Source of the DNA: Mobula hypostoma
Lineage: Eukaryota
Direction of reading: 5' to 3'
Length of the DNA: 64,000 nucleotides
Assembly (NCBI RefSeq): GCF_963921235.1
Contig: NC_086107.1
Location: 93,064,001 to 93,128,000, forward strand
Shown here: piece by piece, positions 4,311 to 57,500 of the stretch
How the letters are laid out: every line of letters begins with the position of its first letter
Position numbering within the stretch: position 1 is the first letter of the stretch
Notes under the pieces: generated by a model
Seen by the model: only the letters and a program-made list of their open reading frames with translations
The model's database searches: none
Told to the model about the DNA's origin: nothing
Position numbers and translations under genes: made by a program

Positions 4311-4312
4311 CT

Positions 4313-4542
4313 CCAGGTGCCAGGGTCTGGGATGTCCAGGAGCCAGGGTCCGGGATGTCCAGGTGCCAGGGTCCGGGATGTCCAGGTCCCAGGGTCTGGG
4401 ATGTCCAGGAGCCAGGGTCCGGGACGTCCAGGTGCCAGGGTCCGGGACGTCCAGGTGCCAGGGTCCGGGACGTCCAGGAGCCAGGGTCCGGGACGTCCAG
4501 GTGCCAGGGTCCGGGATGGCCAGGTGCCAGGGTCCGGGATGT
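4313..4542 (+). repeat. 23-bp minisatellite, 10 copies of ccaggtgccagggtccgggatgt
   Basis: Directly visible. The unit is CR1 ORF1 esterase-coding sequence (PGARVRDV). Confidence 0.95.
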
Positions 4543-16340: not shown

Positions 16341-17079
16341 TGATCATAATTTTGCATACCCCTATCAATTCTCTCCTTATTCTCCTATGCTCCATGGAAA
16401 AAAGTCCTAACTTATTCAATCAGGTCCTCCAGATCCAGCAACATCCTTGTGAATTTTCTTGGCACTCTTTCAATCTTATTGATATCTTTTCTTTAGGTAG
16501 GTGACCAAAACTTGACACAATACTCCAAATTCAGCCTCACCAATGTCTTCTACAATTATAATAACATCTCAACTCCCGTACTCAATACTTTGATATGTGA
16601 AGGTCAATGTGCCAAAAGCTCTCTTTATGGCTCTATCTACCTGTGATACCACTTTCAAGGAATTATGTATCTGTATTCCCAGAACCTTCTGTTCTACCGT
16701 ACTCCTCAGAAGTCACCATAGAAGTCCTACCCTAGTTTGTCCTCCCAAAGTACAACATTTCAAATTTCTCTGCATTAAATTCTACCTGCCATTTCTCAAC
16801 CCATTTTCCAGCTGCTCCAGATCCCAATGCAAGCTGTGATAGCCTTCCTCGCTGTCCAATGCACACCCAGTCTTGGTGTGTCATCCGCAAATTTGCTGAT
16901 CCAGTTAACCGCAATGCCATCCAGATTGCTGATAAAGATGACAAACAGCAATGGACCCAGCACCGATCCCTGCGGCATTCCACCAGTCACAGGCCTCCAG
17001 TTAGATAGGTAACCATCTACTGCCACTCTCTGGTTTCTCCAACAAAACCAATTTCTAATACAACTTACTGCCTCATCTT

Positions 17080-19089
17080 AATTACAATTGATCCAGATAT
17101 TATGGGTTTTAGAGTTAATCAGGAGGAATATAAAATTAATCTTTTTGCCGATGATGTTTTGATCTATTTAACAAATCCACAACATTCGTTACATAAATTA
17201 TCTTCTAGATTGGATGAATATGGGAAGGTATCAGGTTACAAAATAAATTGGGATAAAAGTGAAATTTTACCTCTTACTAAAGGAGACTATAGTCAATATC
17301 GATTAGTAACCCAATTTAGATGGCCGGTAAATGGTATAAAGTATTTAGGTATAAGACTTGATAATGATCTAAAGAATTTATATAAATTTAACTATTTACC
17401 ACTATTAAAAAAAATTCAAGAAGATCTTGACAAATGGATGATATTACCAATAACATTAGTAGGTAGAGTCAATGTTGTAAAAATGAATATATTTCCTAGA
17501 TTACAGTATTTGTTTCAAACATTACCAATACAATTGCCACAGAAATTTTTTCAAGAGTTAAATAATTGTGTGAGAAAATTTCTTTGGAAAGGTAAAATGT
17601 CAAGAATATCATTGGAAAAATTGACATGTAAATTTGGGTTAGGAGGGTTACAACTTCCAAACTTTAAAAACTATTATAAAGCAAATCAACTTAGATTTAT
17701 TGCATCTTTCTTCGATGATCGAAAACCAGCATGGATTAAAATAGAACTAGACAAGATAGGAGAAAATAGACCTGAAGATTTTATATATAAATGGGAATTT
17801 AAATCGATACGGGAAAAGAAAGAATCTCCTATATTAACACATTTGATTGATCTATGGAATAAGATAAATGTTGATAATGAAACACAGAAATCTCTATTAG
17901 CAAGGAGACCTTCGTTCCAAAACAGACTTATTCCTTTTACAATGGACAATCAACTTTTATATAATTGGTACCAAAAAGGGATTAAATTTATAGGAGATTG
18001 TTTTGAACGAGGTATATTGATGTCATTTGAACAATTAAAGGATAAATATAAAATATCTAATAATACTTTCTTTTGTTACTTTCAATTAAGGGCTTACTTA
18101 AAAGGTAAGCTGGGTCAAACAATGTTTTTGCCAAAACCTAATGAAATTGAAATTTTAATTCAAAAAGGGAAAATTAAAAAATTTATTTCTTGTATGTATA
18201 ATTTGATTCAAGAACAGACAATTAAACAAGGAACCCATAAGTCAAAGCAAAAATGGGAAACAGATCTGAATATTATTATTGATGAAACAAATTGGTCAAG
18301 ACTTTGTCTTGACAGTATGACAAATACAATAAATGTTCGACTTAGATTAGTACAATATAATTTTTACACTAATTATATATTACACCGCAAAAAATAAATA
18401 GATTAAATTTAAATCTATCTGATAAATGTTTTCGGTGTAATCAAGAAATTGGTACTTTTTTACATTCTTCTTGGTCTTTTTTTAAAATTCAACCCTTCTG
18501 GATAAATTTAAGAATCTTATTGGAACAAATTACTGCAACTCAACTTCCACATAACCCTGTATTATTTTTATTAGGTGATATTGAAGGGATAAAACCGAAA
18601 CTTAAATTGAATAAATATCAGAAAGAATTTATAAAAATTGCATTGGCAGTAGCTAAGAAGACTATAGCAGTTACTTGGAAATCTGATTCGTATTTAAGTA
18701 TGGATCATTGGAATAATGAAATGGCTAGTTCTATTCCACTCGAAAAAATTACTTATAATTTAAGAGATAGATTGTAACATTTTTGAATATTTGGCACCCT
18801 TATTTACAAAAGATAGGATGGCATATTTAAGTGCTCTGATAAAGACTTTGGTCACTTGGGAAAAGTAACGAATAATTATACCAAATTTATTTTGAATCCC
18901 ATGGAGCATGTGGAAACCTTCCAATACCCAGGCGGTTCTTTTCTTTTTTTTTCTTTTTTTTCTTTTTCTTTCTTTTTAGGTAGGACTATATATGGGGGGG
19001 GGAGGGTTAAGGGGAGAGGGGAGGGTAGATTCTTTTTTTTCATGTATTCTTTTTGAAAATTCAATAAAAATTATATTACAAAAAAAAAA
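17080..19089 (+). mobile_element. 5'-truncated L1-clade LINE with polyA tail and 19-bp TSD
   Basis: TSD caacttactgcctcatctt at 17061-17079 and 19090-19108. AATAAA at 19063 followed by an A tail. T-rich then G-rich 3' UTR. Markedly AT-rich. Confidence 0.95.
17102..18397 (+). pseudogene. L1 ORF2 remnant (RT C-terminal half to zinc knuckle)
   Basis: LFADD, GYKINWDKS, IKYLGI, GGLQLPN. A frameshift near 18360 precedes the CFRCxxxxGTFLHSSWS knuckle. Confidence 0.92.
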
Positions 19090-19524: not shown

Positions 19525-21630
19525 CTAGGAACAGATGTTCTCAGGGAAATGTACGGAAGAAATGTGGTAAATGTTCAGGGGATATTTGTGTGGAGTTCTG
19601 CATAGTATGTTCCAATGAGACAGGGAAAGGATGGTAGGGTACAGGAACCGTGGTGTACAAAGGCTGTTGTACATCTAGTCAAGAACAAAAGAAGAGCTAA
19701 TGAAAGGTTCAAAAAACTAGGTAATGATAGAGATTGAGAAGATTATAAGGCTTGCAGGAAGGAGCTTAAGAAAGAAATTAGGAGAGCCAGAAGGGGCCAT
19801 GAGTAGGTCTTGGCAGACAGGATTAAGGAAAACCCCAAGGCGTTCTACAAGTATTTGAAGAGCAAGAGGATAAGATGTGAGAGAACAGGACCAATCAAGT
19901 GTGACAGTGGAAAAGTGTGTATGGAACTGGAGGAGATAGTAGAGGTATTTATTGAGTACTTTGCTTCAGTATTCACTACGGAAAAGGATCTTAGCAATTG
20001 TGGAGATGACTTACAGTAGACTGAAAAGCTTGAGCATGTAGATAATAAGAAAGAGGAGCTTTTGGAAAGCATCAAGTTGGATAAGTCACCGGGACTGGAC
20101 AAGATGTACCCCGGGCTACTGTGGGAGGCGAGGGAGGAGATTGCTGAGCCTCTGACGATGATCTTTGCATTATCACTGGGGACAGGAGAGGATTGGAGGG
20201 TTGCGGATGTTGTTCTATTATTCAAGAAAGGAAGTAGAGATAGCCCAGGAAATTATAGACCAGTGAGTCTTAATTCAGTGGTTGGTAAGTTGATGGAGAA
20301 GATCCTGAGAGGCAGGATTTATGAACATTTGGACAGGCGTAATATGATTAGGAATAGTCATCATGGCTTTGTCAAAGGCAGGTCATGCCTTATAAGCCTG
20401 ATTGAATTTTTTGAGGATGTGACTAAACACATTGATGAAGGTAGAGTAGTAGATGTAGTATATATGGATTTCAGCAAGGCATTTGGCAAGGTACCCCATG
20501 CAAGGCTTATTGAGAAGGTAAGGAGGCATGGGATCCAAGGGGATTTTGCTTTCTGGATCCAGAACTGGCTTGCCCACAGAAGGCAAAGACTGGTTGTAGA
20601 CAGGTCATATTCTGTATGGAGGTTGGTTACTAGTGGTGTACCTCAGGGATCTGGGACCCCCACTCTTCGTGATTTTTATAAATGACCTTGATGAGGAAGT
20701 GGAGGGATGGGTTAGTAAGTTTGCTGATGACACAAAGGTTGGTGGTGTTGTGGATTGTGTGAAGGGCTGTCAGAGGTTACAGCGGGACATTGATAGGATG
20801 CAAGACTGGGCTAAGAAGTGGCAGATGGAGTTCAACCCAAATAAGTGTGAGGTGGTTCATTTTGGTAGGTCAAATATGATGACAGGATATAGTATTAATG
20901 GTAAGACTCTTTGCAGTGTGGCGGATCAAAGGGATCTTGGGGTCTGAGTCCATAGGACACTCAAAGCTGTTGCGCAGGTTGACTCTGCGTATAAGAAAGC
21001 ATACGGTGCATTGGCCTTCATCAATCGTAGGATTCAGCTTAGGAGCTGAGAGGTAATGTTGCTGCTAAAAAGGACCCTAGTCAGACCCCACTTGGAGTAC
21101 TGTGCTCAGTTCTGGTTGTCTCACTGTAGGAATGATGTGGAAACCATAGAAAGGGTGCCAAGGAGATTTATAAGGATGTTGCCTGGATTGGGGAGCATGC
21201 CTTATGAGAATAGATTGAATGAAGTTGGCCTTTTTTCCTTGGAGCGATGGAGGATGGGAGGTGACCTGATAGAGGTGTATAAGATGATGAGAGGCGTTGA
21301 TCATGTGGAAAGTCAGTGGCTTTCTCCCAGGGCTGAAATGGCTGCCACAAGAGGGCACAGTTTTAAGGTGCTGGAGAGTAGGTACAGAGGAGATGTCAGG
21401 GGTAGGTTTTTTACTCAGAGAGTGGTGACTGGGTGGAATGGGCTGCCGGCCACTGTGGTGGAGGTGGATACGACAGGGTCTCTTAAGAGACTCCTGGACA
21501 GGTAAATGAAGCGCAGAAAAATAGAGGGCTATGGGTAACCCTAGGTAATTTCTAAAGTAAGGACATGTTAGGCAGAGCTTTGTGGGCTGAAGGGCCTGTA
21601 TTGTGCTGTAGGTTTTCTATGTCTCTATGT
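19525..21630 (+). mobile_element. CR1 LINE, 5'-truncated, same family as 4313-7936
   Basis: Closely similar to 5805-7936. RT motifs in ORFs 20062-20685 and 20633-20947; tail ctatgtctctatgtt. Confidence 0.95.
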
Positions 21631-22166
21631 TATATCTGCTGTGCACCTCCTTCTTCTTCCTAACCAGAGCCTCAATATCTCTCAAATACCAAGGTTCTCT
21701 AAATCTATCATCCTTGCCTTATTCTGACAGGAACGTACAAGCACTGTACTCAATACTTCACTTTTGAAGGCCTTCCACTTACCAAGTACTGTACATCTTT
21801 GCCAGAAAGCAACTGTCCCAATCCACACTTGCCAGATCCTTTCTGGTACCATCAAAAATTTGTCTTTCTCCAATTTAGAACCTTAACCCAAGGACCAGAC
21901 CTTTTCCCTTTCCATAATTACCTTGTAACTAGGGGCATTATGATCACTCGATGCAAAGGGTTTCCTTACTCAAACTTCTGTTACCTGCCCAGACTCATTC
22001 CCTAATAGGAGATCCAGTATCACACTTTTTCTAGTTGGGACTTCTAGTTGAAACTTTCCTGAACACCTTTGACAAACTCAATTCCATCCATCCTTTTTAC
22101 AGTTTGGAAGTACCAGTCAATATGTGGAAAGTTAAAATCATCTACTAACACAAACTTATGTTTCTT

Positions 22167-22341
22167 CCAACACACATAAAAGTTGCTGGTGGGCGCAGCA
22201 GGCCAGGCAGCATCTCTAGGAAGAGGTACAGTCAACGTTTCGGGCAGAGTCTCTTCCTAGAGACGCTGCCTGGCCTGCTGCATTCACCAGCAACTTTTAT
22301 GTGTGTTGCTTGAAATTCCAGCATCTGCAGATTTCCTTGTG
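22167..22341. mobile_element. Penelope-derived palindromic mini-element with 12-bp TSD
   Basis: Inverted arms caacacacataaaagttgctggtg... and ...caccagcaacttttatgtgtgttg. TSD cttatgtttctt at 22155 and 22342. Confidence 0.8.
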
Positions 22342-23421: not shown

Positions 23422-25124
23422 ATTAACTGAATTGAGTTGACTTTATTTCTTACATCCTTCACATACGTATGGAGTAAAAATCTTTACATTACATCTCTGT
23501 CTGAATGTGCAATGTGCAAATTATAGAAATTGGTAATAAATAGTATGTACAGTCAGATATACAATAGGACAGTCAATATCACTTAGAAATAAAATTGTGT
23601 CAGCGTCAATTAATCAGTCTGATGGCCTGGTGGAAGAAGCTGTCCCGGAGCCTGTTGGTCCTGGCTTTTATGCTGCGGTACCATTTCCCGGATGGTAGCA
23701 GATGGAACAGTTTGTGGTTGGGGTGACTCAGGTCCCCAGTGATCCTTCGGGCCTTTTTTACACATCTGTCTTTGTAAATGTCCTGAATAGTGGGAGTTTC
23801 ACATCCACAGATGCGCTGGGCTGTCCGCACCACTCTCTGCAGAGTCCTGTGATTGAGGGAAATACAGTTCCCATACCAGGCAGTGATGCAGCCAGTCAGG
23901 ATGCTCTCAACTGTGCCCCTGTAGAAAGTCCTCAGGATCTGGGGACTCATGCCAAACTTCTTCAACTGTCTGAGGTGAAAGAGACGCTGTTGTGCTTTAT
24001 TCACCACACAGCCGGTACGTACAGACCACATGAGGGTCCTTGGTGATGTGTATACCGAAGAACCTAAAGCTGTTCAAACTCTCAAACCCCAAATCCATTG
24101 ATGTCAATAGGGGTTAGCCTGTCTCCATTCCTCCTGTAGTCCACAACCAGCTCCTTAGTTTTTGCAACATTGAGGGAGAGGTTGTTTTCTTGACACCACT
24201 GTGTCAGGGTGATGACTTCTCTGTAGGCTGCCTCATTATTATTTGAGGTAAGGCCAATCAATAAGCATCATCTGCAAATTTAATTAGCTGATTGGAGCTG
24301 TGGGTGGTGACACAGTCATGAGTGTACAGAGAGTAAAAGAGGGGGCTTGGTACACAGCCCTGGGAGGGGTGGGCTCCTGTGTTGTGGGTCAGAGGGGCAG
24401 ATGTGAGGGAGCCCACTCTTGCCACCTGCCGGTGATCTGACAGGGAGTCCAGGATCCAGCTGCACAAGGCAGGGTGAAGGCCGATGTCTCTGAGCTTCTT
24501 GTCGAGCCTGGAGGGAACTATGGTGTTGAATGCTGAACTGTAGTCCAAGAACAGCATTCTCACATAAGCGTCCTTCTTCTCCAGATGTATAGGGACGGTG
24601 TGTACAGCTGTGGCTATTGTGTCATCTGTTGTTTGGTTATGTCGGTAGGTGAATTGTAGAGTCCAGTGTGGGTGGTAGCAAGCTGCAGATGTAGTCCTTG
24701 TCCAGCCTCTCAAAGCATTTGTTTATTATTGAGGTGAGTGCGACAGGACGCCAGTCATTCAGACATGTTACCTTGGTCTTTTCAGGTACAGGGACAATGG
24801 TGGACGTTTTGAAACAGGAGAACACTCTACACAGGGAGAGGGAGAGACTAAAAATGTCTGTAAACACACCTGCCAGTTGGGCCGCGCACTCTGAGTACCC
24901 GCCCTGGGATGCCGCCCGGTCCCGCAGCCTTGTGACTGTCCATTCGTCGGAAACACTTGCGTACTTCAGCCTCAGAGATGACTAAGGGGCATATTACTTC
25001 GGGGGTTCACTGTAGGCGATATCGAACCGAACGTAAAAAAAAATTTAGCTCATCTGGGAGAGAGGCAGCGATGTCGGCAGCACCACTGCATTTAGCTTTG
25101 AGGTCTGCAATGGTGTGCAGACCT
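23422..25124 (-). mobile_element. Rex1/Babar LINE, 5'-truncated, inserted in CR1 ORF1
   Basis: Minus-strand ORFs with [43 protein letters not shown]. Flanking duplication tgccagaga at 23413 and 25125. Confidence 0.92.
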
Positions 25125-26705: not shown

Positions 26706-26925
26706 AAACACAAAATACCCTGCAGATGCTGGGATCAAAGCAACACTCACAACACGCTGGAGGAACTCAGCAGGTCGGGCAGCATCCGTGGAAACGATCA
26801 GTCAACGTTTCGGGCCGGAACGCTTCGTCAGGACTCTGATGAAGGGTTCCGGCCCGAAATGTTGACTCATCGTTTCCATGGATGCTGCCTGACCTGCTGA
26901 GTTCCTCCAGCATGTTGTGATTGTT
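26706..26925. mobile_element. Penelope-derived inverted-repeat element with hammerhead cores on both strands
   Basis: Plus strand CTGATGA(26836)-agggttccggccc-GAAA(26856)-tgtt. Minus strand CTGACGA(26831-26825)-agcgttccggccc-GAAA-cgtt. Arms are near-perfect inverted repeats. Confidence 0.85.
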
Positions 26926-26985
26926 GCTCTGTCTCTCTCTCTTTCTATCTATCTCTGTCTCTCCCCCCCTCTCTCTCTCTCTCTC

Positions 26986-29451: not shown

Positions 29452-30115
29452 CAAAATCAAAGTCAAAGTAAAATTTATCAAAGTACATATATGTTACCAT
29501 ATACTACCTTGAGATTTATTTCCTTGCAGGAATTTAAGGGAAAATAAAGAAATACAAGAGAATTTATGAAAAACTAAACATATAAAACGATTGACTAACA
29601 ACCAATCTGCAAAAGGAGGCAAATTGTGCAAACAAAAAAAGAATACTGAGAACATGAATTGTTAGAAGACATTGAACGTGAGACTGTAGGTTAGGTTGTT
29701 TTGAGCTGGGGTATGTGAAGTTCTGCAGCCTGATGGTTGTAGGGTAATAATTGTTCCTGAACCTGGTGGTGTGGGGCCCAAGGCTACTGTACCTCCAGCC
29801 CGATGGCAGCAGTGAGAAGAGAGCCTGGGTGATGGGGATTGTTGATAAGGCCTGCTGCTTTCTTGTGACAGTGGACCTTGTAAATGTGCTCAGTGGTGGT
29901 GAGGACTTTGCCTGTGATGGACTGGGCTGCAACCATCAATTGCTATAGCCTTTTCCATTTCTGGGTATTGGCGCTTCCATACCAGACCATGATGCAACCA
30001 GTCAGGGTACTCTCCACTGTGCATCTATAGAAGCTACTCAAAGTTTTTGGTGACATGGCAAATCTATGCAAACTTCTAAGAAAGTAAAGGTGCATTCTTT
30101 GTGATGACACTTAAG
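29452..30115 (-). mobile_element. Rex1-type 3' fragment
   Basis: ORF 29564-29932 (LFSLLPSGWRYSSL..TTRFRNNYYPTTIRL); tail caaagtcaaagt on the plus strand. Confidence 0.75.
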
Positions 30116-31238: not shown

Positions 31239-31304
31239 CTATATAATAATAATGTTACTATAAATCATTTTTACTCAGCTCAAGCTGGTGAAACCTGAGG
31301 TACA

Positions 31305-33569
31305 ATCATAACACCATTAGTTTCAATTTGATCATGGACAAGGATAGATCTGGTCCTAGGGTTGAGGTTCTGAACTGGAAGAAGGCCAAATTTGAAGAAA
31401 TGAGAAAGGATCTAAAAAGCGTGGATTGGGACAGGTTGTTCTCTGGCAAAGATGTGATTGGTAGGTGGGAAGCCTTCAAAGGGGAAATTTTGAGAGTGCA
31501 GAGTTTGTATGTTCCTGTCAGGATTAAAGGCAAATTGAATAGGAATAAGGAACCTTGGTTCTCAAGGGATATTGCAACTCTGATAAAGAAGAAGAGGGAG
31601 TTGTATGAAATGTATAGGAGACAGGGGGTAAATCAGGTGCTTGAGGAGTATAAGAAGTGCAAGAAAATACCCAAGAAAGAAATCAGGAGGGCTAAAAGAA
31701 GACATGAGGTTGCCTTGGCAGTCAAAGTGAAGGATAACCCAAAGAACTTTTACAAGTATATTAAGAGCAGAAGGATTGTAAGGGATAAAATTGGTCCTCT
31801 TGAAGATCAGAGTGGTCGGCTTTGTGCGGAACCAAAGGAAATGGGGGAGATGTTAAATAGGTTTTTTGCATCTGTATTTACTAAGGAAGCTGGCATGAAA
31901 TCTATGGAATTGAGGGAATCAAGTAATGAGACCATGGAAACTGTACAGATTGAAAAGGAAGAGTTGCTTGCTGTCTTGAGGAAAATTAAAGTGGATAAAC
32001 CCCGGGACCTGACAGGGTGTTCCCTCGGACCTTGAAGGAGACTAGTGTTGAAATTGCCGGGGCCCTGGCAGAAATATTTAAAATGTCGCTGTCTACGGGT
32101 GAAGTGCCGGAGGATTGGAGAGTGGCTCATGTTGTTCCGTTGTTTAAAAAAGGATCGAAAAGTAATCCGGGAAATTATAGGCCGGTGAGTTTAACGTCAG
32201 TAGTAGGTAAGTTATTGGAGGGAGTACTAAGAGACAGAATCTACAAGCATTTGGATAGACAGGGGCTTATTAGGGAGAGTCAACATGGCTTTGTGCGTGG
32301 TAGGTCATGTTTGACCAATCTGTTGGAGTTTTTTGAGGAGGTTACCAGGAAAGTGGATGAAGGGAAGGCAGTGGATATTGTCTACATGGACTTCAGTAAG
32401 GCCTTTGACAAGGTCCTGCATGGGAGGTTAGTTAGGAAAATTCAGTCACTAGGTATACATGGAGAGGTGGTGAATTGGATTAGACATTGGCTCGATGGAA
32501 GAAGCCAGAGAGTGGTGGTAGAGAATTGCTTCTCTGAATGGAGGCCTGTGACTAGTGATGTGCCACAGGGATCAGTGCTGGGTCCATTGTTATTTGTCAT
32601 CTATATCAATGATCTGGATGATAATGTGGTAAATTGGATCAGCAAGTTTGCTGATGATACAAAGATTGGAGGTGTAGTAGACAGTGAGGAAGGTTTTCAG
32701 AGCCTGCAGAGGGACTTGGACCATCTGGAAAAATGGGCTGAAAAATGGCAGATGGAGTTTAATACTGACAAGTGTGAGGTATTGCACGTTGGAAGGACAA
32801 ACCAAGGTAGAACATACAGGGTTAATGGTAAGGCACTGAGGAGTGCAGTGGAACAGAGGGATCTGGGAATACAGATACAAAATTCCCTAAAAGTGTTGTC
32901 ACAGGTAGATAGGGTCGTAAAGAGAGCTTTTGGTACATTGGCCTTTATTAATCGAAGTATTGAGTATAAGAGCTGGAATGTTATGATGAGGTTGTATAAG
33001 GCATTGATGAGGCTGAATCTGGAGTATTGTGTTCAGTTTTGGTCACCAAATTACAGGAAGGATATAAATAAGGTTGAAAGAGTGCAGAGAAGGTTTACAA
33101 GGATGTTGCTGGGACTTGAGAAACTCAGTTACAGAGAAAGGTTGAATAGGTTAGGACTTTATTCCCTGGAGCGTAGAAGAATGAGGGGAGATTTGATAGA
33201 GGTATATAAAATGATGATGGGTCTAGATAGAGTGAATGCAAGCAGGCTTTTTCCACTGAGGCAAGGGGAGAAAAAAACCAGAGGACATGGGTTAAGGGTG
33301 AGGGGGGAAAAGTTTAAAGGGAACATTAGGGGGGGCTTCTTCACACAGAGAGTGGTGGGAGTATGGAATGAGCTGCCAGACGAGGTGGTAAATGCAGGTT
33401 CTTTTTTAACATTTAAGAATAAATTAGACAGATACATGGATGGGAGGTGTATGGAGGGATATGGTCCGTGTGCAGGTCAGTGGGACTAGGCAGAAAATGG
33501 TTCGGCACAGCCAAGAAGGGCCAAAGGGCCTGTTTCTGTGCTGTAGTTTCTATGGTTCTATGGTTCTAT
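31305..33569 (+). mobile_element. Young 5'-truncated CR1 LINE with 6-bp TSD
   Basis: TSD ggtaca at 31299 and 33570; tail (ctatggtt)n. ORF2 is open over 31328-32035 and 32017-33489 with a single frameshift. Confidence 0.95.
32017..33489 (+). CDS. CR1 ORF2 reverse transcriptase domain and C-terminus (490 aa open stretch, not a full ORF2)
   Basis: [59 protein letters not shown]. Confidence 0.85.
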   Translation: MFPRTLKETSVEIAGALAEIFKMSLSTGEVPEDWRVAHVVPLFKKGSKSNPGNYRPVSLTSVVGKLLEGVLRDRIYKHLDRQGLIRESQHGFVRGRSCLTNLLEFFEEVTRKVDEGKAVDIVYMDFSKAFDKVLHGRLVRKIQSLGIHGEVVNWIRHWLDGRSQRVVVENCFSEWRPVTSDVPQGSVLGPLLFVIYINDLDDNVVNWISKFADDTKIGGVVDSEEGFQSLQRDLDHLEKWAEKWQMEFNTDKCEVLHVGRTNQGRTYRVNGKALRSAVEQRDLGIQIQNSLKVLSQVDRVVKRAFGTLAFINRSIEYKSWNVMMRLYKALMRLNLEYCVQFWSPNYRKDINKVERVQRRFTRMLLGLEKLSYRERLNRLGLYSLERRRMRGDLIEVYKMMMGLDRVNASRLFPLRQGEKKTRGHGLRVRGEKFKGNIRGGFFTQRVVGVWNELPDEVVNAGSFLTFKNKLDRYMDGRCMEGYGPCAGQWD

Positions 33570-33911
33570 GGTACAGGCATAGCCAAGCTCACTCATTTCT
33601 CAATTGCTAGGAACTTTCGGACTATTCTAATGGTGTTTAGTATTGTGGCTTTTTGGAGATTTACATAAATATTGCTGTGTAGGCCTAATTGTTTATTTGC
33701 ACAGTTTATCTTGTTTTGTACATTGGTTGTTCATCAGTCTTTGCTTGTTTTTCATTAATTCTGTTGTATTTCTTTATTCTACTGTGAATGCGTACAAGAA
33801 AATGAATCCCAAGGTAGCATACGGTGACATATACATATTTTGATAATAAATTTACTTTGAATTTTACCAGCCTCTCACACCCTCCTCTACATTATGATAG
33901 ACACTTCATTT

Positions 33912-44422: not shown

Positions 44423-44983
44423 CTCTCAGTGGCCACTTTATTAGAAATGTCCTGCACCAAATAAAGTGTTCCCTGAGTGTATGCTTGTGCTCTCCTGCTT
44501 CTCTGGCCCATCCACTTCAAGGTTTAACGAGTTCTGTTATTCAGAGGTGCTCTACTGCACATCACTGTTTCTAACATGTGGTTACTTGAGACACTGTGAC
44601 CTTGCTCTCAGCCTGAAGCAGTCTGGCTATTCTCCTCTGACCTCCCTCATTAACAAGGTGTTATCACCCCGAGAATTCCTGTTCACCGGATGTTGTTTTT
44701 CTTTTTGCACCATTCTCTGTAAACATGAGATGGTTGTGCATGAAAACCCCAGGAGATCAGCAGTTTTCTGAGGTACTCAAACCACCCCATCTGGCACCAT
44801 GAATCATTCCATAGTCAAAGTCACTTGATCGCATTCATTCTGATGTTTGGTCTGAACAACAACTGAACCTCTTGACCATGCCTGCATGCTTTTATGCATT
44901 GTTGCTGCCACATGATTGGTCGATTAGATGTTTGCGTTAATGAGCAGGTATACTAGTGCAGCTAATGAAGTGGCCACTGAGTG
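44423..44983 (-). mobile_element. Tc1-derived element, copy 3 (complete)
   Basis: TA-flanked; mini TIR-TIR hairpin at 44423-44479; far TIR ..taatgaagtggccactgagtg then TA. Confidence 0.88.
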
Positions 44984-45389
44984 TATGTGAGAATAACCAT
45001 CCATCTCCGACTTCGCACGTAGTGGGGTTTCTCTCCTCCCTCTTGGGTCTGCGACTGATTCTATGCCGCTGATTGACATGGTCATGCAGGGCCGAACAGC
45101 CAGTTTCCATACTGGCTTAACACCATCCTTGCCATTGCACCATACCTATCCTAGGATACTAAATATTTCTTCTGCGACCACCGATTTCTTTTGCAGAGTA
45201 ATGCACACAGTATGTTGGAGAGGAATAAACGGCTTACGTTCCATGCAGAGACCCAATTGAACTCACTGGTTCACCTGGGGGTCTTCAGACTGCAATTAGA
45301 TTGGAGACCATTCTCCAATGATGAATCTTGTTATCCAGAAAAAAACACAAATTTAAGAAAGCTTTGATTCCCTTTTTTTTTTGTGGTTA

Positions 45390-45726
45390 GCCAACCTCAG
45401 AATTAGCTTGAAGAAATTCAACATTTCATCTAAAAGCTGGGAAGACGTTGCAGTCAATACATGCACCTGGAGGAAATCCCTTCAAGGAGCAGTGCTACAT
45501 GAGAGCGACCTCCACCGCGTCGCGAAGAACAGCCGGCAGCCGTGAGAGGGGAGACGGAACGACCAAAACACTCAGCCGCTAACCACACCCACCACTTACT
45601 CGTATCCACATTGTACTAGAAGATGTGGATCCCAGATTGGCCTCTACAGCTATCTGGGGGCCCACCAATAGACGACCCCCTTTTGGAGACCATTGTACTC
45701 GACTTCAGTGATTGCACTGGCACTAT
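45390..45726 (+). mobile_element. RTE-clade LINE 3' end
   Basis: NLRISLKKFNISSKSWEDVA..WRKSLQ..YPHCTRRCGSQIGLYSYL matches the typical RTE C-terminus. Confidence 0.75.
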
Positions 45727-46694
45727 ACGTCGCAAGTTGTCAGGAGTGCAACTGTTGTGCTGTGCCACCATGCTGCAGAGGGGTGAGGAGGAGAGAGTGA
45801 TCAGAAAGACGTTCTGCTCCCGATGGCTTCACGGTGACTGTAGCAAGGATGCGCACTTCTGACAAGACGACTTTGGGAAGTCTAACCCGCTCCAATAATT
45901 TTATTGAACTCATGATCAAGTTCTATTTTATTGAACTCGTGATCAAGGCTTGAGAAATTGCATTGAAGGTCACTAACACCTGATCCCAACCTTTAGAGAA
46001 TGGGTGAGGCCACCTACCAACAGTAATAACTAAAATATATATAATCCTCGAGATTGATATGCTTAGCCACACAATATAAGGTTTAAACAGTGATTGTCAC
46101 CATATCGTTTTTGAAAGGGAGCTAGAAGTAGATCCGCTTAGAACTTCCAACGGAACTTGAATAAATATTTGAAATGGGGACGTGCAGGGATAGGATAAGG
46201 GGCCGGGATTAATTGGACAGTTCCTTGACGAAAAGTTGAATAGCCTCCTTCCGTATCTGATTCCATACACTGCAGGGCGGAACGGTGCAATGCCGCGCAA
46301 CTGTCCAAATTTCGGAATCAAACTGCCAGTCCAAGTGGTGCATGCGAGCTCCATTTCAACGTTTGTGAGAAGTTTGGATAGGTACATGGATGGGAGGGAG
46401 CATGGAGGACTATGGCCCGGGTGCAGGTCGATGGGACTAGGCCGTTTAAATTGTTCGGTACCGACTAGATGGGCCGAAGTGCACGTTTCGGTGCTGTAGT
46501 TTCCTATGACGCTATGACTCTTAAAACAATCCGGAAAGTGACGGCTTTATCTCTCAGGATGTAGAATTCGTTACGGCTCTGTAATTAATATGCGGAGAAA
46601 GTGGGGTAGGGTGGAAAAGTTCAAGGGAAGCGCATGGGGAGATGCTGGAAATGACATACTGGCACTGCTTGTGCGGTTAGTTGCCCCCATTCTG

Positions 46695-47256
46695 CACACA
46701 GTAGCCACTTTATGAGGGTCCCTCCTTTGCCTAATAAACTGATAACTGAGTTCTGCTGCTGCAGCCCATCCGCTACCAGCCTCCCGAAGTATTATGCATT
46801 CAGAGACGCTCTTCTCCACACCATTGTGGTAACGCGTGGTTACTTGAGTTAATGCCGCCTTCCTGTTAGCTTGAACCAGTCTGGCCATTCTCATCTGACC
46901 TCGCTCATTAACAAGGCGGTTTCGCCCACAGAACTGCCGCACTCTAGATGGTTTTTTTATTTGTTTGTTTGATTGATTTTCTCAGCACCCTGTAAACTCC
47001 AGAGTCCGAAGCGCATGAAAATCCCACGAGATCAGGAGTTTCTAAGATACTCAAACCAGCCCGTCTGGCACCCACAACCATTCCACTGTCAAAGTCACTT
47101 AGACCATATTTCTTCCCCATTCTGATGTTTGGTCTGAACCTCTTGACCATGTCAACATGCTTTTATGCATTGAGTTGCTGCCACATGATTGGCTAATTAG
47201 ATATCTGTATTAACGAGCAGGTGTACTGGTGTACCTAACCAAGTGGTCACTGAGTG
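46695..47256 (-). mobile_element. Tc1-derived element, copy 4 (CpG-rich)
   Basis: ORFs 46944-47150 and 46571-46942 (MGKKYGLSDFDSGMVVGARRAGLSI; LVNERGQMRMARLVQANRKA); TIR ggtgtacctaaccaagtggtcactgagtg then TA. Confidence 0.88.
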
Positions 47257-50200
47257 TATGTGTTAAAGAAGCAGAAATATTCGTACAAAGACGATCCCTC
47301 CCTGAAACACTCCTCCATGTGTCAGACAGTAAAATTCGAGTTTAGTGACGGCTGGATACCAGCTCGTATGCTTAGCACTCGGGCTTCCCTGAAAAGTAAG
47401 GTTTCAGTGAAAATGTATTTCCGAGGATCGGTGGTTAAGGGAATGCCGATAGATGGCTAGGTACGGCTTAAATGCAGAAAAACACACAGTTTTGTGAGGC
47501 CATTTTAGGTTGTGAACGGGTTACGGTGGCTCGTCCCATTGCGAGACTGAAATGTGTGCTAAAATATGGTGATATAATCTGGCAAGTTATTGCGCTTGGC
47601 GCCGTGCGTATTTACGACCCTGGACACAATCTCCACTTGACACGATAGCCGGGAACTTGTTTTCCATTCCTAAGATTCTCACTAAGTTGCGGGATTTTTG
47701 CTAAAATATTTTCCACCATGTCTCCATTTCTTCACCTTTTGTGTTCGCAGCGAGGAGAGTGGGGAGGGGGCTCGTAGAGCCCGCTGCGTACTCTCCCTCC
47801 GGGGGTAAACCCACCGTCATCCAATACTAACTCTGGAGTCGCGCCGCTGAACGAAATTCGTTGCTCTCCGCCAAGGCAAGCAAGGCTAAAACCCAGACCA
47901 CTCCACGCGGCAAAACGTTACGCAAATACCAGACACACAACCGCTATCCTGTCCGTGCACTCACGGTGATTCTTGCGTCCAACCCTGTCGCGCTCTACAA
48001 CCATCCGAGTTACCCCTCGATCACTAACCCCTAACTATTCTTCCAGATCTTCCCTTCTTCTGCTCCTCCTTCTCTGTTTAGCTCTTTTCCATCGCAAACG
48101 GAAAGTTTCGATCCTAACCCATTTGATTTTCATCTCAACTTCAATAAACTCACTGACCTGGTCCCAAAAGTTCCGTGAGAATAAGTCCTTTAAGCACCAT
48201 TTTGCGTCAAAGCTAAAATTGTATGTTTTAAGTCAACCTGACAACCCTCTACAAATATAATCATTCTGGGTGGTTTTAAATATTATGTAAATGTTAGATC
48301 TATCGAATGATTTTTTAATTTAATGAGGGAGGGACGGAATCTCATTGAAACCTATCGAATGTTGAAAGGTCTAGATGGAGTGGCCGTGGAGAGAGAGGAT
48401 GTCCCCTAGAGTGGGGGGGGGGGGTCTAGGATCAGAGTGCACGTCCCTCAGAATAGAGAGGCGCCCCTTTAGGATAAAGAGAGGGAGGAACTTTTTTTTT
48501 AGCCTGAAGGTGGTGAATCTGTGGAATTCATTGCCACAGACGGCCGTGAAGGCCAAGTCATTGGGTATATTTAAGACGGAGGTTGATAGTTCTTGATTAG
48601 TAAAGGCGTCAAAGGTTACGGGGAGAAGGCAGGAGAATGGGATTGAGAGGGATAATAAATCAGCCATGATGGAATGGTGGAGCAGACTCGATTAGCCGAA
48701 TGGCCTAATTCTGTTTCTACGTACTCTGGTCTTAATTGTTCTTTATATTTCTAATTGTTATTTTTGGGTTGCCGAGGCAGAGGCAAAAATTGTGTTTTAG
48801 ATTTCAACAGTTTGCATTAGTCCGTTCGGTGGTTAAATGCTGGTGTAACAAAAATGCAATGTGAGTGGCGGCAGAAATAGGTTTCAGACCCCTTTTATCT
48901 GCTCCATCCGAGCCAGTCACAGTACGCGGACCCCAAACACAGCTTTTTAACAGGGGGTTGGGAGTGGGGTGTGTGAACAACTTTCTTCAGTCTGGTGGCT
49001 GAGGGTGTTTCCCCCGTAGTTTAGGATCTGAGATTGTGGCGCAGAGCGGCGCAGCCTCTGAAATATTCCTAAAACTTTCTGACTTTCTGAAACTCGATGT
49101 TTCCCAAAAAATTAAAAGGATGCAGATAAATAGCTTTTTTTTTGTTGTTATTTGACCCTGCGTGCACTATGAGAAATACAAGTTAACACAGTTTCTGACA
49201 CAACTAGCACAGTGACACACCCATAAATGCTCACAACTGGAGACATGTGTCATTAATGCATCAAACCATCCACCCAAGGATATTTTACACAGCCACGTAC
49301 CAGTACGAGCATCATGTCACATCAACACACTGATTCACAGTAGCTCACATGCGTAAAGACATGATCCCACACAAGGTGGCAAATATGAACAACTACTAAA
49401 AGAGTGACAAACACTCAAACATAAACACGCTAGGACAGTGATTCACAAATGTCAATTCACTAACATGCGCTCGTGCGCGCACGCACACTTAAACTTTGTT
49501 CATGTCACACATATACACGCGCGCGCGCGTTGCTGTGCACAACTCAACTAAGTTTAACTCATTAAGCAGTGCGACAAACGCGGAAAAACACAACTAATAT
49601 TAGTGCAAACGTATGATTTGTTCAGAAGCACACACAACTGTGCAAAGTTCCAGGCATACAAACACACGAGTAGACAGTGCAAGACACAGACGCCAGTTGG
49701 AAACGCGAGATCGACCAAGTACACAAACCCTCTGACGTTCACAACCTGTGCACTGTTGTGCACACAAACACACACACACACACACACACACTCGTGCACA
49801 CGAATGCACATGCTGAGTGGCGCGCACAATGACACGCGTGAATACAGAAGGACTGACACGCGCGTTTGTATACACGGAGGAAAGAAGCGTCCAGACTGAC
49901 ATCTCAGAAATGTACATCCAGTAGTGAGTACTACAAAGGGTTAAATTCACACTTGCAACGCACAAACATACCAATGCAAAGAAGAAACCACTAACGCACT
50001 AATACCGCGCACAGTATCTCTCCTACACTTGCCTGGTGTAGAGGTAACTCGTTATCTGTCGAAAACAAGTTGCCTCATATGATCTCGCTCCTGCACACCG
50101 TTCCCTAGATGGTGAGTGGGGAAACTAACCCCGCCATTTTATAGTCTTCCCAAAAAACATCAATCTTCCTCTGTAATCTGAAAGCAGTAAGTAAAAACAA

Positions 50201-50341
50201 GGGGGTGAGAGAGAAGAGTGAACTGGACGGGGGAGAGATAGAAGGCGTGAGTCTTAACACAGACATTAGGATAAATTGAAGTCAGGTTACAGAGTGATGT
50301 GTAAGGGAGAAAGAAAGACAACGACTGCCAGGCATAGATAT

Positions 50342-50353
50342 GGGGGGGGGGGG

Positions 50354-50422
<69 letters not shown>
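50342..50422. repeat. Poly-G followed by (GA)n microsatellite
   Basis: Directly visible. Confidence 0.95.
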
Positions 50423-50427
<5 letters not shown>

Positions 50428-52343
50428 AAAATTAGCAGAGGGAGAGAGGTAGAGCGCAAAACATATAGAGATAGTAAGAGCCGAGTGAGATGAACATAGA
50501 CCTTTCTCTGTTATATTAAATCAATGTAAATATAGCCTCAAAGTTGGAGAACTAAAAAGTATGTCTATGTTTGCACCTGACCCAGAAATAAATAACACTG
50601 TTATTAATTTCTGAGGAATCTATTGCAAATTTGATTTTAAGTTAACAGAGATGTTGGCGCGGCCTGTACTATTGGAGACATATTTTGTACATTCTGCATA
50701 AAGTCCTCTATATTATAAGGGGTACTGCAACTAACCTGGAACCCACAGGATAGGGGGTAAATGGTTGTGCATTGCGCTTACTGTACTAGTCAACGCTGCG
50801 CAGATATGATCTTAAAAAGCTCGAAGAAACTATTTGTACTTTCAAGATAAAACATTCCAAACATAGGCTGATTTAGGAAAATATGTTGAAGATTCGTGCA
50901 GTTTCACCTCGCTTTTTCATTGTATAATCAATGCAATTTACTAAAAAATAAAACAACCATGAGCATGTGAAGAAAATGTGCTGGGGTATCTTTAGGGTTG
51001 GTTCTGCGTCCTGGCGCGGACGGAGACTGTCTGGTTATTTTCACGCACTGTTGCTGAATTAAAATGCAACAAGCTCCAGTCTGTCGGAGAATGCACAGGT
51101 CTTTGAAACAAAATGTATAATGGTTTAAATATCAGGATGTTTAATTAGTTCCTTGAATTAATGAAAAAAAAAACTGCAATAAAATTAGTCAAAGATCCAG
51201 CTTGCTATGCCGTGTTCAGACAGTAAACATAAAGGTGTTTCCCTCTTGGCCCCAGCAGTTTATACCTGCCAGTGAAAGTACACACTGCATATGTATCATT
51301 GTGTGCGCGATATTATGCATCAGAGTAAGTTATATAAAGAAAATGAATACATGTTAGAATATATGTGAGAACGGACGTATTAAGTCGTGCGTTAGAATGT
51401 GTGCGTGTTAAATAACTTGTGCGCGCCAGTGTGTTATATCTGTTGACTTTGTGTATATATGTTTTGAGTGACTATGTGTGTGTGTGTTTGTTAAATTGTG
51501 TTGAACTTTGTAAATTTAACAGTGTACATGTTTGTGAGACTGTGTGTAATGTGGTGTATATGTGTGTGTGTATGTGTGCGCGCGCGCTTGAAAGCTAAGA
51601 TTCAAGTTTTGCTCTGTCAAGTCACCATACAGTTTATTTTTTTTGGGGGGGGGGTCCTCTTTGTACAGTCAATTAACTTGGAGTGAATTACTTTCCTAAT
51701 GATTATTACGCTATAAGTCTTTTCGCCCTGTTGACTATTCAGTGAGTTATTTTGCAGGCTTGGCTGCTGTTTGTTGTTGTTGTTTGGTGGCCCGCCGTTG
51801 AATGAAGGCGAGCAGAAGCCAACACACCGACGGGCACCTGCAATCCAGAAGCTTGGCCGGTATGGGCTGCAGCTCGGGTGTGCACTGATGGGACGCTGAA
51901 GGGCTGAATTAAAAAGGAAGGGGTTTAATGACGAAGAGCGCGGGTTGATGGTATCACTGACTGATAAATGATTTTTGTTTAACGAGGCGAGTTTCTTCTT
52001 CTGTGGGGTTTACTGGTGAGGTGCCGTGTCTTTCCAGCTGTTCAACACCTTTCGCCATCACCAACCTATTCCCACAGTTTAATCTCTGCCAGTATAAAGT
52101 TGGCCTTAACTAAAATGCGTCGTCTTCTTTGGGGGGCGGGGGGGGGGGTGATTTACAAAGGGATGCATAAAGGCCAGGGACTAACGCGCGCCCAGTTTCT
52201 CTCTGACCTCATCTCCAACCCTCGCCCCTCAAATCTACACCCAAAATCTAACGAACAGATCAATTGAAGGACCGGGGTTGGCTTCTCGGGAAGTTCAGTG
52301 ATAGGCAAATGGAGGCTCATTTGGTTTCTCCAACGATGTCAGT

Positions 52344-52435
52344 GTCCTCCCTCAAACGCTTTTTGTGGTAAGGGCTTTCCGACCAGATATAGGAAGCAAC
52401 AGAAAGCCCAGACCGCAAAAAGATCCGAGGGGGAC
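52344..52435 (-). ncRNA. mir-129: microRNA precursor, mir-129 family
   Basis: Minus-strand 5p arm CUUUUUGCGGUCUGGGCUUUC (52422-52402) and 3p arm AAGCCCUUACCACAAAAAGCGU (52377-52356) match miR-129-5p/3p. The basal stem extends as gtccccctcggat / gtttgagggaggac. Confidence 0.96.
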
Positions 52436-52788
52436 TTGGATCTCCTTTCATGGCCTTGCAGGATAGCAGCGATTCCTGGATCCATCCACAGCCTTCTCCG
52501 GTCTTGCCTTCAAGGGACCTTTCTCCCATCACCGAGCACTTCCCTCGTTTTTTTTTGCTCAGATATTCATTTTTGGAAGAGGGGTCCCTACATCCCTCTA
52601 ATCACAACCCCTCCCGCTGCTCGTTTTTGTTTTAAAGCGAGTGAGGCTATTTAACCAGCTCTCCCTTGCAAGGCGCAACGTTCGTGTTCGCCTTCATTCC
52701 CTTTTCTCGTCGGCTCCCTCCCTCTCGCTGCTCCTCTCACTCTCGCAGTCTGGTGAATCTGCGTAAAAAAAGAATCTAACCTCCAACC

Positions 52789-52973
52789 TGAGTCAGTTAT
52801 TAAATAGCAATGCGTGCGCATGTGCAAACCCGGCCCGGCGTCAAAGCACGTCCCTCTCAGCCTATCGCGTTCGCGCTTTGCACGGCTCTGCCTCTCGAAA
52901 CCACCCTTTGCAGACCAGTCTCCTGAAACTCTCGCCAGCCTCTCTACTTCACCGTTGGCAAGCAGTCTATTGG
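52789..52973. promoter_or_regulatory. Motif cluster upstream of mir-129: AP-1, NRF1-like, CCAAT
   Basis: TGAGTCA 52789-52795; TGCGCATGTGCA 52815-52826; ATTGG 52969-52973. Motif matches only. Confidence 0.4.
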
Positions 52974-53535
52974 CTCCGTTGCCCGCCATTCGCAAAACTT
53001 TAACCCTCCAGTTCAACACTTTCCAGACAAGCATTCCAGGCTCCGAAGCCCCACGCCTTTCTCCCAATTTTTTTCTCTACCATCCCTTTACCACAGCCGC
53101 GTTCCAAAGCCTCAATCATTGTCATCTGTCACCGCGGTCACCCCTGCAGCCCATTTCTTCCCCCCGACCCTTCCCACCGCAGCATTGAGTACGTTTATCT
53201 TCCCAAAGACCTTCCTAAATCGCCCAAGCCCACGCAATCTAAATCTGAGGCGATCTCGTCTTCCACCACTCCGCCGAGAACATTTTGCTAGCCTTTTTTT
53301 CTCACTCACCCCACAATCATTTCTTTCAAGACTTAATCTTGCTATACTCTTCATAGGCTTACACCTCCCCGCTCCGCACCCCAAGCCCCATGTATTCAAT
53401 TCTGAGCATCACATTCTATGGGAATAATGCTCGTGGCTCCGGGAAAATGCCGAAGAGATTTTCTAAACTGGTTTCAGGGACGGAAGGGTTCTGTTATATG
53501 GAGAGGCTAAATAAAATAAAATATTCTTTCTTGTT

Positions 53536-53645
53536 AACACACACACACACACACACGCACAGTGCTGGAGGAACTCAGCACGTCACACGGCATCTATAGA
53601 AAAGAATAAACAGTCGAAGTTTCGGGCCTAGACACCATCAGAACT
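53536..53645 (-). mobile_element. Penelope-derived mini-element (another degenerate pair at ~54675-54852)
   Basis: tgctggaggaactcagca..aataaacagtcgaagtttcgggcc..catcag. Confidence 0.65.
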
Positions 53646-54140
53646 GCAATCTTTCTTAGGGCAGGTTAAGGGGAGATTTAATGGAGGGGTTCAGCATTGT
53701 GAACGTGGGAGTATTGTCAGACTGTTTCCGCTGGTAGATATTGGAAACTCATTCAATATAATTGACAAGACAGCCAAATGGGCGTCGACAATTCTTTTGT
53801 CGCCGCCAATTGTGCTCTGGAATATTCATCCTGGAATGGCGGTGGAAACAGATATAACGGGAACATTCAAAATAGAATTGGGAAATTGTTTAATCCAAAA
53901 AAGAAAATATTTTCAGAACTGCGGGAAAGTGAGCAGAGCTTTTGGACTAATTGTATAGACCAGTGACAGCAAGTTTGAGGGCAAGTGGTCTCTTTGTAGA
54001 TGTGCTACCATGGCTCACCTTCTCTGTGATGGTCTTTTTCTCTTCACTGAACCAATCTCATTCAAAGCAAGCTTCAGTCAGGCTACCTTCTTTAAATGTT
54101 TCCCCGTGTCTTTAACTTGTTGACACCCTACTGTACACAG

Positions 54141-54181
<41 letters not shown>

Positions 54182-54329
54182 CACACACAACTGTACACAA
54201 ATACTTTCTCACACACACACCTATAGGCTGTAGGTGCTTCGCAGAATAAATTATTACAAATTGCACCGTGTTATACTGCATGTTATATTGCATGTGTTTG
54301 TTTTAAACAGGCGTTGGACTTGATTGTAC

Positions 54330-54555
54330 GTCTTTTTTTTAAAACAGAGTCGTGGGTGCTTGGAGAGTGCTGCCAGGGGTGGTGGTAGAGGCAGATACAC
54401 TAAGGGCATTTAAAAGGCTCTTAGGCGTATGGATGGAAGAATAATAGAGTGCTATGTGGGAGAGAAGGGTTAGATTGATCTTAGAGTGGCCCAAAAGATT
54501 GGCATAACTTTGTGGGCCGAAGGGCATGCACTGTTCAATGTCCTATGTTCTAATC
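54330..54555 (+). mobile_element. CR1 3' fragment
   Basis: cagagtcgtgggtgcttgg..gtgggccgaagggc..ctatgttcta. Confidence 0.75.
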
Positions 54556-57055
54556 ATGGCAGATAAATCTCTTCCCAACGTCCATTTGCTGTAAAAATCT
54601 ATATCTTAATCTTTATATACATATATATAGCCTCTAAGTTAAATATAAGAAGATGGTGGCTGATATACGTGTAAAGGAGACACAAGAGGCTATAAATGCT
54701 GAAAACTGTAGCAATGTTCTGAGGGAGGAACTCAGTCGTTCAGAGAGAATCTATCTGTGTACTTAGCCTATCATTCACTCTATCTTTCAAATGAAGGGTC
54801 TTGACCAGAAAGGCCAACTGTCCAATTCTATCCACAGATGCTGCCTGACCTTCTAGATAATATTTAATTTACCTCTATCGACAGGAACCGGGACAAACAG
54901 ATTTGTGCCTGCACTCTATGTGTATTTCTGCAGGAAACAGTTTTACAATTGGGATGAAGACTCCTTCAAAGAGAGACTACCGTCCCCAAATAGAGATGGG
55001 ATCTTGGGAGTCAGACTCTGGGCATGCACAGTATGAGAGCCTGGCATATCTCCAAACACGGGGTGGGAAGGGAGGTATCCACTGACCAGCAAATCCAAAT
55101 TCACTGAAGCTGCTGTCCCGAGAAACCTACTATTGTGCTCATTTAAATACCCATATTTAAGAATGTGTGCACTGAAGAACTTACCAGTTGTTGGTACCTT
55201 GATGCTTCGACTAGTGGATACGTCAAAGGGTAAAGATTAGCTCCTAAGGCATTGCTATTGCTTCTGACGTAGAGTATTTTATTACACTTTGTATTTACCA
55301 CTCACAATATTTTACAATGTTTTCTCTGGTCCGCCGGCTCGCGCCAGAGAATTCTGTTACCTCTTCATTATCTCGCCAGAAAGTACTTTCAGACGTGAAG
55401 CGGCCCACAGTGAAGGTCCGAGTACAGAGCGCTTTGTTTCTTAGCTGAGTTCTCTGCGGACGGACTAGAGATAGTCCCAACAAAAGTTTTACCTCGCCAA
55501 CTCTTCTCAGTCCCCCCTCCTCAGTCCACAGGCACTGAGGTGAATTGCACTGTTTTCTATTAGATCTCAGCACAAGACAATTCAACACTTTCCTATCGCT
55601 TCACCGGGAAAGTGTACACAGGGGAATCATTTCTGAGTTAGTGTCTAAACATAGATTGGACATTACAGTGCGTGAAGAGAGAATAGTGGCAAACAACTGT
55701 GACAAGCCTTCGCACCACCCCCCCCCCCGCCCCAACACACACACACACACACACACACACACATCAAGAATGTCTAGCTTATTTACTGCTGTCCATTGGT
55801 TGGAAAACCAACACGCCTCGTCCCCAACCTCGTAACCATGGGTTAGATTAGTAGGAAAGAGGACCCATAAAGTGAAAGGCATATCCCGCCCACACTCTGC
55901 TACCCAGACTCTGCTGTGTTATTTATGAGCCCCCCACATTATTTGCTTGCCAGATAGGGGCGGTGGTAGGTTCACGATAGCCGACGTAAAAGTTGGCTAA
56001 CGAGGCGGGGTTGGGTCTTATTCTGGTCCACTGCCCCGCCCCCTCTAAAATAAGGAAGTAAACAATAAGTTATTGCGTTATTGGAGACTGCGTTTGACTG
56101 CGCCGAGGTACTCAAATAAATCATTGCGGTACCCTGAAGAATCAGCCATACAACCCTCAGTTCCTCCCTCCAAAGTCCACACTAGTTTCTTGTAGGCAAA
56201 ATGTATATTTCAATACGATCAATATAAACACTTCCCGTCCGCTCTCTCTCTCTCTGTCTCTCTTTGCCTCTCTTTCTTTCTGTTTCTCTCTTTCTGTTCG
56301 TCTCTTTCTCAGTTCTCTGTCTCTGCCTCTCTCTCTTACACAAACTCTTTCTCTGTCTTACACAAACACACACACACACACACACACAACCGTCCCTTAT
56401 TAAACGTGCAGGAAGAATCCCCAAATTAACCTAAACCCGATTCCAGGATCTCTCCTGTCAGACTGGGTGCAGCCGGCACAGAGCAGCGCGTAGCAAGTAA
56501 AGCTTAGAATAACTGACCTCTACATCCCGCTCTGGCCGCCCGCTCTCTTTCAACTGCACATTTCCTCTGCTGCTCAAGCTGAACAAGCAAACATCTGTAC
56601 CTGAGATTTAGAGAGAGGCAGGAGTCATGCCGACATATCGCGCTGTTCTAATTGACGCGGCATCCTCGCTGTTTTCGCGGGGAAGTATTGGCTTCAGAAG
56701 CCACGTCTTCACACACTGCGGAGCCGAACTGCCTCGTTATTTATACCACAAACCATCGCCTGTATCTCTCCGTTGAACTCACAGCTTTATCCCGGCTTTT
56801 AACTTTCGCAGTGCCTGTTGCCTCATGGTCTCGCGCAACTCGCTCTCACAAGCATCCCGGATTTGGAGAAATATATAAATAAACAGTATTGCTAAAAATA
56901 ACGCGCGTACCTGCTTGTTGCCATCCCTCCGCGCTGGATTCCCTCTCGGATAGAAGTGATATTTCAATGTTAGACGGCACACTGTCAAGATGTACACAGA
57001 ACAGAATAGCCCTGTGTCTGAGAGACTGATTGAAAACATCTCTCTCGCTCTCTTT

Positions 57056-57088
<33 letters not shown>

Positions 57089-57304
57089 ATACACACACAT
57101 ACACAGCATAACAACCTCCTCGCTATACCATTTCACAGTCACGATTTCTGGGAACCTCCATCTCTCTGTACATGACGCATCCCTGGGGCAGTCACGACTA
57201 GGACTCGCTGCTTTACACCAATCACATTTTTTTTATTATACCTTAAAAAAACAAGTACTGGCACATAAAGTACTTGAAGTTACCCCGTCTGCAGAGCTGC
57301 AGAT

Positions 57305-57325
57305 TTCAGCACCACGGACAGCCTC
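57305..57325 (+). promoter_or_regulatory. RE1/NRSE (REST-binding silencer)
   Basis: TTCAGCACCACGGACAGCCTC matches consensus TTCAGCACCACGGACAGCGCC at the first 18 positions with canonical 2-bp spacing. Confidence 0.9.
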
Positions 57326-57369
57326 CTGGTTAGGCGATGTGCTCGCTGCACCCCCCCCCCCACTCTTCT

Positions 57370-57456
57370 CTCATTTTCTTTCCTCTCTCTTTATCTCTTT
57401 TCTGTCTTTCTCTTTCTTTTTCTCTTCTCTCTCTCCCCCTCTCTCTCTTTCTCTCT

Positions 57457-57499
<43 letters not shown>

Positions 57500-57500
57500 C

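Follow-up and report, generated by a model that had tools for sequence, protein, structure and literature searches.

A very probable mir-129 gene of a ray-like fish, lying in a CpG-rich domain with a predicted REST site upstream

Introduction

Does the window, i.e. the whole stretch of 64,000 nucleotides of ray DNA analysed here, contain a genuine mir-129 gene, and if so, which of the vertebrate paralogues is it and what could control its expression? An initial annotation, made from the letters of the sequence alone, had placed a mir-129 hairpin with variant mature arms at 52344–52435 and read it as a functional, possibly unannotated paralogue, perhaps one lost in mammals. Our analysis indicates that the window very probably carries a functional mir-129 gene of a ray-like fish.

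Identity and fold of the hairpin

The Rfam model of mir-129 (RF00486) matches positions 52428–52353 of the minus strand, a strand that the initial annotation had left unstated, with a score of 75.5 bits (E = 2.8e-14). This score is above the gathering cut-off of 48.6 bits and the match covers the whole model (positions 1–75 of 75), as befits a member of the MIR-129 family; both the call and its coordinates were right. No other Rfam match in the 64-kb window reaches gathering level, the other four (found in 44–64 kb at E values up to 1) lying far below their cut-offs. A single sense copy of mir-129 was found in the window, together with a match to the opposite arm of the hairpin itself. The parts of the locus are as follows:

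52344–52435, minus strand: mir-129 pri-miRNA hairpin including its 13-pair lower stem (Rfam score, fold and pair table)
52402–52422, minus strand: predicted 5p arm of 21 nt with a canonical seed and U20 (ends set by homology to the medaka matures)
52378–52401, minus strand: the 24 nt that separate the arms, forming the upper stem and the apical loop, with UGU at 52401–52399 (pair table)
52356–52377, minus strand: predicted 3p arm of 22 nt with a canonical seed, A12 and G21 (ends set by homology)
52335–52338, minus strand: CNNC motif (CAUC) at +18

The 92-nt hairpin (52435–52344) folds at −49.1 kcal/mol (z −6.97), a value equalled by none of 200 shuffled sequences. Among 2780 tiled 92-nt windows, five fold better, all of them in repeats; the identity of the hairpin therefore rests on homology, because folding energy alone is not unique in the window. 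Canonical miRNA hairpins have at least 16 pairs between the arms, a lower stem of about 13 nt and a loop of 8–40 nt. Here, 16 inter-arm pairs are followed by a 4-pair upper stem, the arms are 24 nt apart, and the long basal stem claimed initially amounts to 13 pairs interrupted by one bulge. With the predicted arm ends, the precursor measures 67 nt. Two processing motifs are present, namely the apical UGU and the CNNC, which lies at +18, in agreement with the distance of about 18 nt beyond the 3p end given in the initial annotation; a check for the basal UG at −14 of the hairpin was negative. All three motifs (UG, UGU/G and CNNC) are described as optional features of miRNA processing (PMC6943042).

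Comparison loci were taken from a pattern scan of metagenome contigs, which returned four matches, two of them (L001 and L004) true mir-129 hairpins resembling medaka 129-1a and 129-1b. The contigs with these fish-type mir-129 genes (L001, 700–773; L004, 1457–1527), although filed as metagenome, are host animal DNA. The two remaining metagenome matches (L002 and L003) and one viral match (L005) are without a hairpin partner and were discarded as chance matches; the same scan of prokaryote genomes gave no match. Contigs of four sequencing runs, compared with 50450–53500, yielded short low-identity pieces, none on the hairpin, and are uninformative either way.

Changes in the mature arms

Relative to the two fish loci and to the medaka mature rows (PMC8321539 supplement), which served as the reference for arm ends and differences, the ray arms carry the three substitutions reported initially: G20U in the 5p arm, and C12A and A21G in the 3p arm. 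L001 additionally differs at 3p position 20. Positions 2–8 are unchanged in both arms, so that the seeds are intact, as had been claimed. The three changes spare the structure: (i) G20U in the 5p arm is accompanied by a G-to-A change of the facing base, A52378, which turns the G.G mismatch of the fish copies into a U-A pair; (ii) C12A falls at a position that is unpaired in the ray locus, L001 and L004 alike; (iii) A21G replaces a U-A pair by a U-G wobble and keeps the pairing. Duplex energies are alike in the three loci (−21.7, −21.6 and −21.4), and 94.9% of the 99 cells formed by 33 pairs in three loci are paired, versus 41–61% in slid controls. Covariation does not reach significance on these three rows: 42 of 500 shuffles score as high as the 3 double changes observed. 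The position of the CAUC is nearly constant (+18 in the ray copy, +17 in both L001 and L004). The three substitutions are probably the product of near-neutral drift constrained by the structure of the hairpin. As to the initial claim of a functional paralogue, the Rfam match, the structure-sparing changes, the CNNC and the REST site described below support its family membership and bear signs of selection.

Genomic surroundings

The window consists mostly of LINE-type repeats, and the hairpin lies in a domain of another composition. Self-repeat cover, counted in 4-kb bins, is 10%, 2% and 6% between 48 and 60 kb and 11–68% elsewhere. The following elements were delineated:

45500–57500, no strand: CpG-enriched, repeat-poor domain of 12 kb (CpG observed/expected 0.69, versus 0.29 and 0.24 in the flanks)
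55700–56150, no strand: candidate promoter with a cluster of GC boxes (4 observed versus 0.29 expected; one box lies inside a C run and the region was chosen after viewing)
56738–56910, minus strand: speculative candidate promoter or first-exon zone with TATA-like boxes (exceeding shuffles; region chosen after viewing)
57305–57325, plus strand: predicted REST site (RE1/NRSE), both core blocks perfect (motif scan)

The zone at 56738–56910 also contains a splice-donor-like site (56910) and a MEF2-type site (56892–56901), which, like the TATA-like boxes and the GC-box cluster, exceeds shuffles. Counts of CRE half-sites and CCAAT boxes were not above chance expectation. Downstream of the hairpin, the CpG-rich domain extends over about 7 kb (45500–51500), with observed/expected peaks above 1.0 at 47.5–48.0 and 49.5–50.0 kb; this part may mark the body of the gene or a further non-coding promoter. 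Plus-strand donor-like sites occur within the domain at 50112 and 52016.

That the hairpin is the only recognisable host gene in the 64 kb, as stated initially, holds as far as Pfam can tell. No convincing host protein exon was found in the 20 long ORFs and in 361 of the 679 stop-free frames of at least 45 aa, a set from which repeat-covered and low-complexity frames were excluded. Since exons below 45 codons could escape such a scan, the hairpin may lie within a very large intron. The reverse transcriptase, endonuclease and GDSL-like domains matched by Pfam fall in repeat ORFs. An ALKBH8_N match at 29946–30110 belongs to a LINE-adjacent ORF and was rejected as an ALKBH gene; a second one is below the cut-off and gave no alignment; two DUF matches were likewise sub-cutoff, and the window holds no tRNA.

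LINE remnants with these reverse transcriptase, endonuclease and GDSL-like domains occupy 4100–6770, 17009–18777, 19845–21632, 23500–24722 and 31292–33870. Two near-perfect fold-back repeats were noted; the one at 26730–26930 reaches −183.6 kcal/mol over 241 nt, and the one at 22168–22310 reaches −121.9 kcal/mol over 201 nt. Repeat-covered stretches of about 500 bp lie at 610–1120, 44460–44993 and 46751–47267; frames in the first and last of them resemble the N-termini of Tc1/mariner transposases by impression, with no Pfam match.

A predicted REST site upstream of the hairpin

The CpG-rich, repeat-poor domain and the perfect-core RE1 upstream are what our analysis adds to the initial annotation. 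The RE1 (TTCAGCACCACGGACAGCCTC, 57305–57325) precedes the 5p start of the minus-strand hairpin by 4883 bp and sits at the upstream edge of the CpG domain. The search pattern, which we take to represent the RE1, matches once in the window versus 0.01 expected (one of 100 shuffles had a match), and no other site in the window has both RE1 halves. Core positions 2–9 and 12–17, which are intact in this site near the gene, are also the core positions given in PMC1794552, in agreement with the pattern used. In mammals, miR-129-2 is listed among known or predicted REST-regulated miRNAs, the family being marked 'Known', and REST ChIP signal is reported near the mir-129 family in 15 samples (PMC4027192). 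The ray RE1 suggests that REST control of mir-129 is older than the split between cartilaginous and bony fishes; the site could also serve another, unseen transcript. No RE1 was found at up to four mismatches in L001 and L004, where the flanks span at most 1.5 kb.

We propose that the locus is a stand-alone gene, from which Pol II would transcribe a minus-strand primary RNA starting in the CpG-rich domain, and that REST, by analogy with mammalian miR-129-2, would bind the RE1 and repress the gene outside neurons. As in established miRNA biogenesis, Drosha/DGCR8 would crop the 13-pair lower stem, helped by the conserved CNNC and the loop UGU, and after cleavage by Dicer, either arm could load Argonaute. 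The literature describes miR-129 as neuron-specific and as a repressor of Kv1.1 translation (PMC3916726), and both of its arms are of importance, the dominant one being 3p in gar and human and 5p in teleosts (PMC8321539). With both seeds unchanged, the ray copy would repress the same targets as the other miR-129 copies and would provide an extra dose; it probably has no new targets.

Which paralogue

According to the tabulation in PMC8789304, the jawed-vertebrate ancestor had three Mir-129 copies: P1 (1-alpha), P2 (2-alpha) and P4 (2-beta). P1 and P2 are kept in human and gar, all three copies are found in coelacanth, and zebrafish has four duplicates of P1/P2; P4 is absent from human, gar and zebrafish (PMC8789304). 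Callorhinchus milii is scored there with 2-alpha plus 1-beta and without 1-alpha, and the 1-beta copy is scored absent from the jawed-vertebrate ancestor. In the alignment index of the same source, the blocks of P1, P2 and the third copy (named P3 in SuppFile2) measure 65, 66 and 69 columns, respectively. The 67-nt ray precursor fits only the third, a comparison with P4 that bears on block width and not on sequence. Furthermore, 2-beta copies are described as evolving much faster than 2-alpha, and beta copies as lower expressed with unchanged seeds (PMC8789304), while the four medaka copies have one common 5p arm and a single differing 3p site (PMC8321539). Because the ray precursor exceeds the P1 and P2 blocks and its arms are fast-evolving, we favour, with some reserve, the view that the locus is the third, beta-subgenome copy issued from the vertebrate genome duplications (Mir-129-P4 in MirGeneDB). 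The length argument fails if the ray lineage gained one or two loop bases. The reptile 'miR-129b' entries of miRBase are presumably counterparts of the ray copy; the names oha-miR-129a/b and aca-miR-129a occur in passing in the literature.

The lower stem, compared by eye, is closer to that of medaka mir-129-2a/2b than to that of 1b; together with the REST link of miR-129-2, it fits P1 or its sister better than 2-beta. The main rival, which we hold to be unlikely, is accordingly a ray orthologue of mir-129-2 with lineage-specific substitutions, operating by the same mechanism. We take mir-129-2 to be P1 (1-alpha), a mapping drawn from a linkage-group table and the human gene positions. The 2a/2b-like lower stem and the REST control reported for miR-129-2 (PMC4027192) speak for this orthology, but the ray arms carry three changes when none separates the medaka 129-2 copies, the 67-nt precursor is longer than the 65-column P1 block, and C. 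milii is scored without 1-alpha, possibly owing to an assembly gap. The same lower stem and RE1, along with the 1-beta score of C. milii, hint at a 1-beta copy, i.e. a sister of mir-129-2 surviving as a fourth duplicate in cartilaginous fishes, whose inherited REST control would predate the second duplication; we consider this rather doubtful, and evidence from synteny for a 1-beta position would call for a correction of the published inventory of Mir-129 paralogues. It is improbable that the locus is an orthologue of mir-129-1 (P2) or a recent lineage-specific duplicate: the identical CAUC and a lower stem that can be aligned with the two mir-129-1-like fish loci, as well as the retention of 2-alpha in C. 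milii (PMC8789304), are in line with P2, whereas only 7 of 13 and 8 of 13 bases of the 5′ flank equal those of the two loci, similarity does not extend beyond the hairpin, 67 nt is more than the 66-column P2 block and the window holds one copy only.

Two further explanations concern the product rather than the paralogue. An antisense miRNA could also, or mainly, be made from the plus strand, which folds at −43.8 kcal/mol (z −7.88) when the fish antisense strands reach −32.5 and −34.4; two of the three arm changes would add antisense pairs, and a 'miR-129b-3p' primer in PMC3900680 runs antisense to the 5p arm. The plus strand, however, scores 39.9 bits, under the 48.6-bit cut-off, and has a 5x4 internal loop in its lower stem, while the sense strand gained equal stability and the CNNC lies on the minus strand, making this explanation very improbable. 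Finally, three arm substitutions, and the repeated loss and lower expression of beta copies (PMC8789304), are what a decaying, silent copy might display, but with no pair or seed broken and with the CNNC, the CpG domain and the RE1 intact, decay is hardly credible.

Novelty and meaning

Returning to the third, 2-beta copy as the preferred reading, the suggestion of a paralogue lost in mammals is plausible and agrees with it, but such a copy is not new, being already tabulated in PMC8789304. The novelty suspected initially does not hold for chondrichthyans either: in C. milii, the mir-129 loci JX994443 and JX994454, both intergenic and supported by miRDeep, were annotated from small-RNA reads, and the family is reported as enriched in heart, rectal gland, eye and brain of this species (PMC3964593). 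A search of open-access main texts did not find the variant arms, and the main text of MirGeneDB 3.0 does not mention shark, skate or Mir-129; databases and paper supplements may well already contain these exact arms. Altogether, the locus is a correct but fairly ordinary find and a gain in annotation, being probably the ray representative of a microRNA paralogue that is already catalogued. Owing to the variant arms, reads from the ray locus can be mapped uniquely, which makes the expression of a beta copy directly measurable.

Comparison with known systems

With mir-9, mir-124 and mir-132 (PMC1794552) and miR-129-2 (PMC4027192), the ray locus shares the arrangement of an intergenic miRNA with an RE1 within a few kb. 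The mammalian REST–miRNA loci have conservation or ChIP support, whereas REST control of ray mir-129 is predicted from the motif, and mir-129 does not figure in the table of REST-controlled miRNAs of PMC1794552. The C. milii loci JX994443 and JX994454 are likewise chondrichthyan and intergenic; the corresponding supplement gives their coordinates, without sequences. Mir-129-P4 (PMC8789304) is comparable as the third gnathostome copy, with a 69-column block that can hold the 67 nt of the ray precursor, although the table of that source assigns the second copy of C. milii to 1-beta rather than to 2-beta. Compared to the MIR-129 family as a whole (RF00486; medaka mir-129-1a/1b/2a/2b and mammalian mir-129-1/-2), the ray copy differs by G20U with its closed mismatch, by C12A and A21G, and by a precursor of 67 nt versus 62–65 nt. 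It shares with the family the full-length match to the model, the seeds, the register of the duplex and the CAUC, as well as an apparently intergenic setting, the gar and teleost copies being listed as intergenic.
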